A stretch of DNA of 64,000 bases from a virus: the IMG/VR virus record IMGVR_UViG_3300031372_000005, positions 15,545 to 79,544 of that record; one strand, 5' to 3'. A program made the position numbers and the translations under genes. Below, piece by piece: positions 14,628-61,765 of this stretch; within the stretch, counting starts at the first letter, position 1, and the number at the start of each line of letters is the position of its first letter. The notes under the pieces are model-generated. The model made no database searches and was not told the DNA's origin. It worked only from the letters and a program-made list of their open reading frames with translations.

Positions 14628-15731
14628 ATGTCTGAGCAATTCCTAAGCAAAGCCCTTGCTTTTGATCCGGCTAACGCTAACCGCCGTATTGAAATCACAA
14701 ACCCTATTAACATCATTCCTAACCGTTACTTCCTAATGGACCAGCTGGGTCTGTTCGAAGATGTATACCTGACCCAGAAACATGCCCTGGTTCCTGTGTA
14801 TAACGAAGTGTTGAGTGGTGCTCTTCAAGATTACAACTGGGGTGAGAAATCACAAACCCTGACTCCTGATCAAAAGCGCTACATGCGTATTGACGTTCCT
14901 CACTTCCCAGCATCCTATGCCATCACCCCACAAGATGTAGAAGGTATTGCTGCTTGGGCACAGATTTACCAAGGTAATGATCTGGAAACCATCGAGGCAG
15001 TACGAGCCCGTAAACTTGCAAAAGCCCGTAAAGCTCACGCATGGGTTCGTGAAGTGTCTCGTTTTAACCTCATCACCACAGGTAGTGTATATGCCCCTCG
15101 TGGCACTGTAGCTCAGAATTTCTATCAAGAGTTCCAAGTACAGCGTACTCAGATTTCAACTGATCTGACTACCTCCACTACTCCTGATGCGATGATCAAC
15201 AATGTTGTTGCTGGTCTGCAAGACAACCTTCAGTCTGGTGAAATTGTAAATCGTTTCATTGCTCTGTGCTCCCCAAGCTACTTCCAAGCACTGATCAACA
15301 ACGCTTATATCACCGACATTCTGAAAGCTCAGCTGGCTGGTGGCACTTCTAACCTGCTGCTGAATCGTCAAGTTGGTGGTCTGGTTCCAGGTGCTGAAGG
15401 TGTTCTGTACCGTAACTTTGAATACCAAGGCGTTACTTTTTACGAAGTTCGTCCTCAAGCTGGCACCACATTTATTCCAGAAGGTCAGGCATACTTCCTG
15501 CCACTAGGTGTAGATGATCTTTTCACCACCTACTACGCAACTCCTAACAAGTTTAGCACTGTTAATAACGTTGCTCAAGCTTCATATGCGTGGGAATTCC
15601 GTGATCCTAAAGATGAAATCATTGAAGTCGAAACCGAGACTAACCTCTTGAACTTCGTCTCTCGTCCGCAGGAAATCGTTGTTGCTTACCTGCCAAGTGG
15701 TACTGTTCCAGTTCAGCCTTACACTCCGTAA
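14628..15731 (+). CDS. major capsid protein
   Basis: 367 aa, strong RBS and codon bias, gpE-like C-terminus IEVETETNLLNFVSRPQ. Confidence 0.9.
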   Translation: MSEQFLSKALAFDPANANRRIEITNPINIIPNRYFLMDQLGLFEDVYLTQKHALVPVYNEVLSGALQDYNWGEKSQTLTPDQKRYMRIDVPHFPASYAITPQDVEGIAAWAQIYQGNDLETIEAVRARKLAKARKAHAWVREVSRFNLITTGSVYAPRGTVAQNFYQEFQVQRTQISTDLTTSTTPDAMINNVVAGLQDNLQSGEIVNRFIALCSPSYFQALINNAYITDILKAQLAGGTSNLLLNRQVGGLVPGAEGVLYRNFEYQGVTFYEVRPQAGTTFIPEGQAYFLPLGVDDLFTTYYATPNKFSTVNNVAQASYAWEFRDPKDEIIEVETETNLLNFVSRPQEIVVAYLPSGTVPVQPYTP

Positions 15732-60018: not shown

Positions 60019-60407
60019 TCGAAGCAATCGTAGAAGTATGGTGTTCACCTCTTCGCCAAGAAGATTATTCCATAAAAATAATCCCTCTGTGTGCTGGAGA
60101 TTTGCTTAATGTAGAGGATGACATTATAGATTATATCCAATGGGACTTCTATCTAAACACCTTTGGTGTTGACTACCTTGAAGTTAAAGGTTTATGGAAA
60201 GTGGTGTTCAAGATTTCTGTAGCATACACCGCAGTCTGGACATATGATGGGCCTGATGACGATGTAGATATTGGACAAGAAGTGTTGTTCAAAGGTCAGT
60301 GCCAAGAATGGACAGAAATGAAATACATTTGGCTTGAGTTGAATGGGAAGATTGAAGATTATTTCAGAAAGCCTTGGAAGAAACATTTGGGGTTGTATAA
60401 GGATTGA
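60015..60407 (+). CDS. early hypothetical protein
   Basis: GGAGG RBS, ATGA coupling. Confidence 0.7.
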   Translation: MIEAIVEVWCSPLRQEDYSIKIIPLCAGDLLNVEDDIIDYIQWDFYLNTFGVDYLEVKGLWKVVFKISVAYTAVWTYDGPDDDVDIGQEVLFKGQCQEWTEMKYIWLELNGKIEDYFRKPWKKHLGLYKD

Positions 60408-60462
60408 TTCAATTTAGGTATCAATAAACCCCAATAGATAAAAACTTAACATCAATAAAAGC

Positions 60463-60497
60463 TTGCAATATCGACCATTATTTTGCTATAGTGGTCG
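60463..60497 (+). promoter_or_regulatory. promoter with inverted repeat over the -10 box
   Basis: TTGCAA-N18-TATAGT with TG; CGACCATTAT/ATAGTGGTCG palindrome. Confidence 0.65.
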
Positions 60498-60960
60498 TTC
60501 AGTTCTTCTAACGGCAACGAAATTAGAATTGATCGTACAGAGTTTGTCGGGACTACAACGCTTGGCTCTGTATTAAAACGTGTAAAAGGAATGGTACTAG
60601 ACACAGCCGTAGCTCGTAATCTGGAATCGGCGTACTGGCTCCCGCACAAGGGGAGAATGACAGATAAGAAAGACAGCTTGCCCTGATTCTTTCTCCAGCA
60701 CAATATTCTACCTATGGTGTATTGTGAGTTGCCTACACGCAACTATCTAACCTCGTCTGAATTAGGAAGGGACAGCAATGTCTTTTCATAGGGCAGTGAA
60801 GGAAGGGTCGGATGTGAGCCTATATGTTCTCTAAGCAGTGTTAGCCGAAGGGTTAACAGAAGATGATGTTTATCTTTTAACTGTATGGGAATATATAGGG
60901 TAGCTCTATCCAGATTTCTTCCTGAACTGATTAGGAAGTATAAAACTTATAAGTATAAAT
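60497..60960 (+). ncRNA. candidate large structured ncRNA (RNA2)
   Basis: No credible ORF; consecutive helices with G-U pairs on + strand; GCAA tetraloops; multibranch closed by CTATATGTTCTC/GGGAATATATAG; possible 5'-3' pairing 60499-505/60924-930. Confidence 0.55.
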
Positions 60961-61044
60961 AGTTAAGTAACACAACAACACACCAGTGACCGTAGCAACA
61001 ATCTTAGATCTGGAGTAAAACCATAAATAATCCAGAGAAAAGAA

Positions 61045-61436
61045 ATGAAATTATCGAAGCAAGAGATGGAAGAGTTATTTAAGCTCAATGGATATTACGT
61101 ATATATCTGTTACGTCAACGAAGAGCCTGTGTATGTAGGGAAGGGTAAAGGAAAAAGACTCCTACACTGTACATCAGGAAGAAGTCATAATAAAAATTAA
61201 ATACTGCATTGTCAGATTATGGACCTAAAGCCTTTTCAGTGCACATAGTCTACAGAGGACTTGATGAACGAAAGTCTTTAGAAGAAGAAAGAAAACTTAT
61301 AAAATACTTCCTTGTGCAAGGTTACGAACTGTATAACTGTGACCCCGGAACACTGTGGTTTGACCCCCAAGTAAACTACTCTAATATAATAGATTATGAA
61401 AACATTCCTGAGTGGGTCACAGAAAAGATTGAGTAA
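61045..61436 (+). pseudogene. frameshifted small GIY-YIG nuclease
   Basis: YYVYIC...VYVGKGKGKR to TAA 61200; -1 frame continues KLNTALSDYG...EEERKLI...LYN; break lies in an A5 run. Confidence 0.65.
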
Positions 61437-61446
61437 TTTTTTACAC

Positions 61447-61482
61447 AAGCGCCTTGACGGGCGCTTTTCTTTGGGCTAGACT
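61447..61482 (+). terminator. terminator overlapped by promoter
   Basis: AAGCGCC-TTGACG-GGCGCTT-TTCTTT; TTGACG-N17-TAGACT. Confidence 0.7.
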
Positions 61483-61589
61483 TTGATTCAGCTACACAAA
61501 GCGCTTCAATTCCACATTACCCGTTCCAGTTGGTGCAGCTTGGAAAGAAGCAGATGGCACTATCATGCAACGTAAAATGAGTGTATGAA

Positions 61590-61673
61590 ATGAACATTGA
61601 CTTCTACGCAGGATTCATCTGAGGCTTTATTTGCCTATACTTGACACAACGTTATCTTTGGATTAAGAAATAA
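61590..61673 (+). pseudogene. small membrane ORF with in-frame TGA
   Basis: MNIDFYAGFI*GFICLYLTQRYLWIKK; final TAA overlaps next ATG. Confidence 0.4.
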
Positions 61674-61765
61674 TGTTCTTTCTACTATGTTTTCTATTGT
61701 ATCCAACTATGATTCTGTGCATAATGATGACAACCAACGATAAACACGATCCACGAAGGAATTAA
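61673..61765 (+). CDS. small hydrophobic peptide, 30 aa
   Basis: TAATG coupling; MFFLLCFLLYPTMILCIMM... Confidence 0.4.
   Translation: MFFLLCFLLYPTMILCIMMTTNDKHDPRRN

Follow-up and report, generated by a model that had tools for sequence, protein, structure and literature searches.

A large structured RNA at the head of a phage cassette with interchangeable homing-type endonuclease genes

We have analyzed a 64,000-nt stretch of phage DNA (the window; positions 15,545 to 79,544 of the 83-kb IMG/VR record IMGVR_UViG_3300031372_000005), in which a large structured RNA had been predicted at 60463-60960, directly upstream of a GIY-YIG gene. On balance we think that window 60503-60945 is an independent non-coding RNA (ncRNA) gene. 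It would belong to an uncatalogued family of tertiary-structured RNAs of ~330-450 nt in the early regions of Pseudomonas-type phages, and serve as a docking site or cargo for free-standing homing endonucleases. The RNA gene heads a small cassette with its own sigma-70 promoter, a 5′ GNRA-capped hairpin and an intrinsic terminator at its end. Comparison with related loci indicates that the fold is maintained by selection, and that the gene between the RNA and the terminator codes for a free-standing, homing-type endonuclease of the GIY-YIG superfamily that is interchangeable between loci and broken in the window. The RNA is the constant element; the nuclease is interchangeable, dispensable or dead.

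Promoter, fold and conservation of the type A RNA

The form of the RNA found in the window is termed type A. Its features are as follows.

60463-60492 (+): sigma-70 promoter, with −35 TTGCAA (60463-68), an 18-nt spacer with an extended −10 TGc, and −10 TATAGT (60487-92)
60503-60531 (+): 5′ hairpin H1, with a 2-bp stem and GNRA tetraloop (CG-GCAA-CG) as its cap, then a conserved AUCG
60532-60945 (+): type A RNA body, matched at 94-97% identity by other phage contigs and by no Rfam family
60536-60572 (+): hairpin H2 (TACAGAG/CTCTGTA), then UUAAA
60794-60929 (+): 3′ rod domain, the tip of which is a three-way junction (60820-60898) with a GAAG hairpin (60840-60857) and a hairpin at 60858-60878

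The RNA lies in a gene-free stretch, as had been predicted. There is no credible open reading frame (ORF) from 60408 to 61044, between a 130-aa gene that ends at 60407 and is complete when compared with its own homologues, and the ATG at 61045. An antisense 96-aa ORF over the RNA region has zero homologues among 5.8 billion proteins, and was dropped as a protein handle. GC content climbs to 0.47 within the RNA region. The promoter with a palindrome over its −10 is present. The palindrome (60472-60497) is restricted to the window and the JGI phage contig L012, and the remaining family members have TTGCAA-N17-TAATAT without it. The −35 hexamer and ~30 nt upstream are common to the window, L012, L015, L021-L026, L029, L034 and L035.

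The + strand of 60463-60960 has a minimum free energy of −159 kcal/mol (z = −5.0), and 0 of 100 shuffled sequences were as good. The corresponding values for the − strand are −123 kcal/mol and z = −2.5. The strongest local signal comes from 60775-60924 (z = −5.5). Structures outside the covarying helices described below are predictions.

The complete cassette block (60404-61675) is 94% identical to L012, where it lies behind a different upstream gene, and the RNA block is 95% identical there. The IMG/VR contig L015 matches 60503-60951 only, at 95%, with its promoter spacer and GIY-YIG gene ~70% identical or less. L013 matches 60642-60961 at 94%, and its GIY-YIG protein is 53% identical to that of the window. 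The run contigs X16 and X10 match 60532-60966 and then continue into unlike sequence, and a contig from X12 matches 60503-60846. Conservation with L013, L015 and X16 stops at 60951-60966, inside the AT-rich spacer that follows the RNA. The conserved extent of type A is thus ~60503-60945, or ~440 nt where ~460 nt had been claimed, with sharp edges on both sides. Type A was seen in contigs from wastewater, freshwater and phyllosphere runs.

The changes within this block are those expected of a fold under selection. The type A body has 21 variable sites, 10 of them unpaired (mostly in hairpin loops) and 10 keeping a standard pair, with just one that breaks a pair. Three pairs are fully compensated, i.e. 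60536/60572, 60841/60856 and 60842/60855. The first of these lies in H2, where U-A becomes C-G in X12, and the change of C to U at 60568 still pairs with G. The other two are in the predicted GTTAGCC-GAAG-GGTTAAC helix. The mini-stem of H1, predicted as TTCTAA/TTAGAA with CG-GCAA-CG, covaries while its loop is always GNRA, being GC-GAGA-GC in L015, L021 and L029, and CA-GCGA-UG in L035 and the loose end of X16. Changes in the CTATATGTTCTC/GGGAATATATAG helix are all compatible with G-U pairing, as are those in the rod at 60826 and 60890. The loops of the GACA/TGTC (GCAA) and GTTGC/GCAAC hairpins show free variation, and the CACAATA/TATTGTG helix has one break, in L015. The predicted CTTCCTGA/TTAGGAAG pairing competes with the long rod pairing (60794-60929). 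A further proposed pairing, of 60499-505 with 60924-930, is specific to the window and L012 and so did not hold for the family.

Scans with Rfam 15 covariance models at E ≤ 10 over 60300-61600 and 60495-60970 gave only noise, and across the window a tRNA-His alone reaches its gathering score. The families unmatched by the window RNA include group I (RF00028), group II, GIR1, GOLLD, ROOL, HEARO, RNase P, tmRNA and 6S. We found no description of this RNA in the literature. Pattern scans of metagenomes and GTDB returned the contig of L015 only, or nothing. A 22/23-nt match in L016, a GC-rich contig of 420 kb, falls within a clamp-loader-like ORF and was rejected as chance. The proposal of a new ncRNA is therefore borne out by the promoter, the strand-specific fold, the sharply bounded block, the compensatory changes and the lack of an Rfam family.

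Types B and C and the twin words

With the GIY-YIG protein of L015 as query we obtained 17 homologues of 47-89% identity. Loci were mostly found through the GIY-YIG protein, so the sampling is biased. Every context with enough upstream sequence has a gene-free gap of 565-645 nt before the GIY-YIG gene; the contigs of L027 and L028 begin inside the gap. By blastn the gaps upstream of the GIY-YIG homologues show no similarity to type A. Read directly, they share one frame: a promoter region, the 5′ hairpin, AUCG, a second hairpin with UUAAA, and a 3′ flank TAAATCTAATA..TAAATA. The order of the cassette is promoter, 5′ GNRA hairpin, AUCG, second hairpin, UUAAA, RNA body, nuclease gene and terminator.

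Two further types of RNA occupy this frame. Type B is found in L021-23, L025-28, L034 and L035, and has 25 pairs with compensatory double changes. The outer stem of H1 covaries in this type, and an equivalent of H2 is followed by UUAAA. It contains a pseudoknot, and in L035 both crossing helices of this pseudoknot have a double change of their own. Type C is found in L024, L029-33 and L037. It aligns with unannotated gaps of the cultured phage phiPsa374 (plus 13 sister records) and of vB_PpS_SYP (SYP), with 34 compensated pairs. The stem sequence of H2 is identical in type C, and seven of its eight predicted pairs covary in phiPsa374 and SYP. The homolog and covariation analysis proposed originally has thus returned compensated pairs in all three types, 3 in A against 25 in B and 34 in C. 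The RNA gaps of types B and C, phiPsa374 and SYP have no Rfam match, and types A and B have no blastn match in GenBank phages. Covariance model R1 (the type B 5′ domain) detects neither type A nor type C, and homology of the bodies is for that reason unproven beyond the 5′ modules. The bodies may be either very diverged or replaced.

L037:1440-1870 (−) is a mosaic. Its 5′ hairpin is followed by the second hairpin of type B with UUAAAG, then by an additional hairpin with a GAAAGA loop, and the type C body that comes last is complete. We take this to be a probable recombination footprint at the junction of hairpin and UUAAA.

In phiPsa374 (L038; NC_023601.2, 24187-25032) the gap is 846 nt long and unannotated. 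Within it are a type C-like RNA under a promoter of its own and a Zn-ribbon ORF of ~64 aa that is likewise unannotated; a tRNA cluster comes next. Rfam tRNAs at L038 2817-2890 and 3500-3573 are missing from the feature table shown. In SYP (L039), vBPpSSYP_113 (1702-1947), annotated as a hypothetical protein of 81 aa, covers the RNA homologue and is probably a spurious ORF. The SYP gene that follows it codes for 330 aa with CapR homology domains.

In each lineage a word of 8-12 nt occurs exactly twice per locus, bracketing the 3′ rod and usually following a CUSA(A) prefix. The copies are ~110-170 nt apart. The internal copy is located ~+294 from the −35 in types A and B, and the other is at the 3′ end. 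The words are as follows.

60757-60769 (+): twin word of the window, internal copy (CUGAAUUAGGAAG)
60927-60938 (+): twin word of the window, 3′-terminal copy (CUGAUUAGGAAG)
Type A: 9-mer AUUAGGAAG, at 60761-69 and 60930-38, exactly two occurrences in the locus
Type B: AGUUGAAU
Type C: AACAGAAU
phiPsa374: GCGUCAUGAG
SYP: AGUGAGACRUUA

In L035 both copies are AAUUGGAU instead of AGUUGAAU, and in L037 both are AACACAAU, the change being ACAGAA to ACACAA. Because the copies have changed in concert in two lineages, they are probably constrained to stay identical. Such a constraint suggests that they share a partner in trans. No complement of the words is found in cis within each locus. One could go further, and regard the words as recognition elements that can be programmed, making the RNA a trans adaptor that base-pairs with two copies of a target (in the host, a competing phage or DNA). 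The types would then be specificity alleles swapped by endonuclease-driven recombination, possibly directing the mini GIY-YIG protein. We think this elaboration quite unlikely.

The nuclease gene and the mobility of the cassette

The remainder of the cassette comprises the following.

60946-61044 (+): AT-rich spacer, variable between relatives, with TATAAATA (60954-60961) and the weak ribosome-binding site (RBS) of the nuclease gene
61045-61436 (+): mini GIY-YIG endonuclease gene, in two ORFs (61045-61200 and 61209-61436) with the frame broken by a 1-nt deletion
61447-61474 (+): intrinsic terminator closing the cassette, ~80% conserved 3′ of the nuclease gene in L021-L024, L035 and L037
61475-61675 (+): conserved right flank, with 93% identity to L012 (as far as 61675) and 88% to L037 (61448-61593)

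The GIY-YIG protein of the window shares Y18 V19 Y20, Y30 G32, R38, E81 and N97, which are invariant across 16 homologues. It matches the homing endonuclease family phrog_314 (E = 2e-8) and, weakly in profile comparison, the UvrC N-terminal domain and T4 endonuclease II; it has no Pfam hit. The intact 130-aa homologue P0002 of L012 is 93% identical. The A-run at 61192-61196 is A5 in the window as against A6 in that gene, so the window copy would be either a pseudogene or the product of an assembly or sequencing error. These mini GIY-YIG proteins (118-130 aa) consist of the catalytic domain and a conserved C-terminal IPxWVTEEI tail, without a DNA-binding domain of their own. The tail is absent in P0006 (L014), a homologue without the RNA that is tightly packed with no upstream gap. 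Remoter GIY-YIG homologues in isolate phages are likewise packed tightly between genes with no upstream gap.

Other loci carry other nucleases. In L035 an N-terminal winged helix and the GIY-YIG domain form a single fusion protein (216 aa; L035:667-1314 (−)). At L014:643-1526 the GIY-YIG domain is a separate gene directly 3′ of a DUF6945/HTH protein, and the two arrangements may be fused and split versions of one nuclease. L029-L033, L034, L037 and SYP have a protein of 324-330 aa with CapR homology domains, for which the L029 protein also gives weak T5orf172/MUG113 matches and a match to the phrog_681 endonuclease. In phiPsa374 and its 13 sister records there is no nuclease behind the RNA, only the small Zn-ribbon ORF. 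Type A RNA sits with GIY-YIG proteins that are just 46-56% identical to each other, and the L015 protein is 75% identical to a type B-linked protein and 71% to a type C-linked one. By these comparisons the type of RNA does not track the phylogeny of the nuclease. The expected co-occurrence of RNA and GIY-YIG gene therefore stands in part. The RNA adjoins a nuclease gene in nearly every recovered locus, with the phiPsa374 group as sole exception, but the type of nuclease varies. The nuclease gene looks like an interchangeable selfish neighbor rather than a partner.

The cassette has the distribution of a homing element. It is present or absent among close relatives, beside a conserved gene and at boundaries of genetic exchange, where free-standing homing endonuclease genes are known to park (PMC10448857). 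In five relatives rated 100% complete the upstream 130-aa gene is present, but neither the right flank nor an RNA of type A, B or C. Gene context and flanks differ between loci. The sharp 95% block beside nuclease proteins of 46-56% identity fits recombinational spread of RNA alleles via conserved flanks.

Roles of the RNA and alternative explanations

If our preferred reading is correct, the RNA itself would be a functional, selected gene, the conserved DNA of which the endonucleases would use as a long-term docking site. Double-strand-break repair would carry RNA alleles from phage to phage, and repair of this kind would give rise to the sharp 95%-identity block, the mosaics and the pattern of presence and absence. 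The RNA would be released from a co-transcript within the AU-rich spacer. It would act in trans, its compact fold displaying the lineage-specific word in two identical copies to a two-copy or dimeric partner. An accessory role in host takeover or anti-defence is a guess.

A number of points weigh against the independent RNA gene. The discrete stable transcript and the RNA ends are inferred from sequence; a 191-nt contig at 60599-60789 comes from an RNA library (X18), and contigs cannot show transcription, ends or level. With no terminator before the nuclease gene, the RNA could stay a 5′ leader. A nuclease lies beside the RNA in almost all loci, a linkage tighter than docking requires, in a sample biased by recovery of most loci via the GIY-YIG protein. 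A mini GIY-YIG protein without a DNA-binding domain leaves room for an RNA or protein partner. Function in trans, and its target, are pure inference, and beyond their 5′ modules the three RNA types cannot be shown to be homologous.

Large tertiary-structured phage RNAs are few and their functions are unsolved, and the present family is missing from Rfam. Its members sit unannotated in cultured, genetically tractable Pseudomonas phages (the phiPsa374 group and vB_PpS_SYP), so the function of the RNA is directly testable. The twin words provide a concrete handle toward its partner. The cassette would also be a natural case in which homing endonucleases of several architectures share a single RNA gene as their landing pad and shuffle its alleles.

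The closest precedent appears to be the SegB region of phage T4. SegB of T4/T6 is a free-standing GIY-YIG homing endonuclease in a cluster of tRNAs and stable RNAs (PMC2330249, PMC13096335). In both cases a free-standing nuclease gene of the GIY-YIG family adjoins conserved phage RNA genes, there is presence and absence between related phages, and co-conversion of flanking RNA genes is expected. The neighbor in the window cassette differs in being one large ornate RNA rather than tRNAs; moreover, three nuclease architectures alternate at sites of this kind, and cleavage and homing there are putative. GOLLD (RF01998) and ROOL (RF03087) are similarly large, promoter-driven, multi-helix RNAs with tertiary motifs that are phage-borne and accessory, and of unknown function. 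The phiPsa374 RNA adjoins a tRNA cluster, a further likeness. However, there is no match in sequence or structure, the cassette RNA is 330-450 nt as against ~600-800, and it has several non-alignable body types in one frame together with the twin words.

The RNA might instead be a cis-acting leader, i.e. a structured 5′ untranslated region that keeps a toxic endonuclease barely translated early, with a downstream TATAAATA-like promoter giving translatable late transcripts. This is the arrangement of I-TevI and its relatives in T4, where a structured RNA lies 5′ of a weakly translated endonuclease gene with a TATAAATA-like motif just upstream of the gene. TATAAATA (60954-60961) is a T4 late-promoter-like word. 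Most loci have a similar motif in the interval from RNA to nuclease gene, and it may give the nuclease gene a promoter of its own. Conservation of this motif would suit a leader, as would the weak RBSs of the nuclease genes and co-transcription of RNA and nuclease gene, given that the sole intrinsic terminator of the region comes at 61447-61466. Yet the T4 hairpin that masks the RBS is short, and ~440 nt with a pseudoknot and GNRA hairpins far exceeds what masking translation would take. Conservation is lowest in the spacer and RBS region, and we found no consistent pairing of the RNA with the RBS. A given RNA type can be followed by unrelated nuclease genes whose 5′ ends differ. The RNA is conserved independently of the nuclease, being kept in phiPsa374 without one and intact in the window beside a dead gene. 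A purely cis-acting leader is possible, but it is a poor fit and we consider it unlikely.

RNA and nuclease had also been proposed to form a module, in the manner of OMEGA systems (IscB with HEARO omega-RNA, and TnpB), where a compact nuclease gene adjoins a long structured RNA in a mobile unit. The RNA would provide target recognition, e.g. by the twin words, or a scaffold for the mini GIY-YIG protein in a ribonucleoprotein. The linkage in nearly all loci is consistent with this. So too are the lineage-specific words that change in concert, and a protein reduced to the catalytic domain and a tail that is absent from the RNA-less P0006. But OMEGA nucleases are of RuvC/HNH type, each with one conserved scaffold and a variable guide. 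Here the nuclease has three architectures or is missing, the body of the RNA varies by type while its 5′ end is conserved, and no match of guide to target was found. The RNA has no significant match or complementarity to the genomes of cassette-less relatives. Two of the architectures have DNA-binding domains of their own and follow the same RNA types, RNA type is independent of GIY-YIG phylogeny, and remoter homologues have no gap for an RNA. The nuclease is broken in the window and absent in phiPsa374. To our knowledge no GIY-YIG enzyme is RNA-guided. We therefore regard such a module as very unlikely.

The other role suggested originally was that of an origin-priming transcript, acting as a primer or R-loop at the downstream AT-rich tract like ColE1 RNA II or T4 oriF/oriG. 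A strong promoter followed by an AT-rich tract would suit this, and in ICP1 nucleases of the T5orf172/CapR type can be origin-directed (PMC8263062). But five near-complete relatives lack the element, there are no iterons, and the cassette occurs in varying gene contexts. The AT-rich tract is not conserved, and the repeated AAGTATAAA noted within it proves specific to the window. As the element is accessory and the repeat not conserved, an origin primer is extremely unlikely.

Phage group I introns carry GIY-YIG genes, and the RNA might be what remains of a ribozyme such as a self-splicing intron. GNRA loops are present in the family, types B and C have a receptor-like motif (CCUAAG...UAUGG), and the strand order of the type B pseudoknot resembles P3-P7-P3′-P8-P7′. 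Mapping the pseudoknot onto group I by eye was abandoned; the order is P3/P7-like, but there is no P4-P6 equivalent between the strands and no J8/7. No group I, group II, GIR1 or small-ribozyme family of Rfam matches even at E = 10. Flanks differ between loci and the flanking genes, including the upstream 130-aa gene, are complete. An intron is virtually excluded because the promoter lies directly on one side and the terminator directly after the nuclease gene on the other, with no exons. A type III toxin-antitoxin system (ToxIN-like) was rejected, as there are no tandem repeats (only the twin words) and the protein has a DNA-nuclease fold.

Beyond the nuclease gene, a promoter-like site, TTGACG-N17-TAGACT (61454-61482), lies partly over the terminator and ahead of a ~110-nt leader with tiny ORFs. 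The right flank is kept in L037 behind a different nuclease and is absent from the cassette-less relatives; 61484-61600 is conserved, yet no covariation was found in it. Elsewhere, the DNA polymerase of the window phage is 55-58% identical to the polymerases of Pseudomonas phages vB_PpS_SYP and phiPMW. The phiPMW homologue (KU862660.1, 88137-90762) is matched in two pieces, with hypothetical proteins and promoters annotated between them. This split may mark an insertion (intein, intron or homing endonuclease gene) in the polymerase gene.
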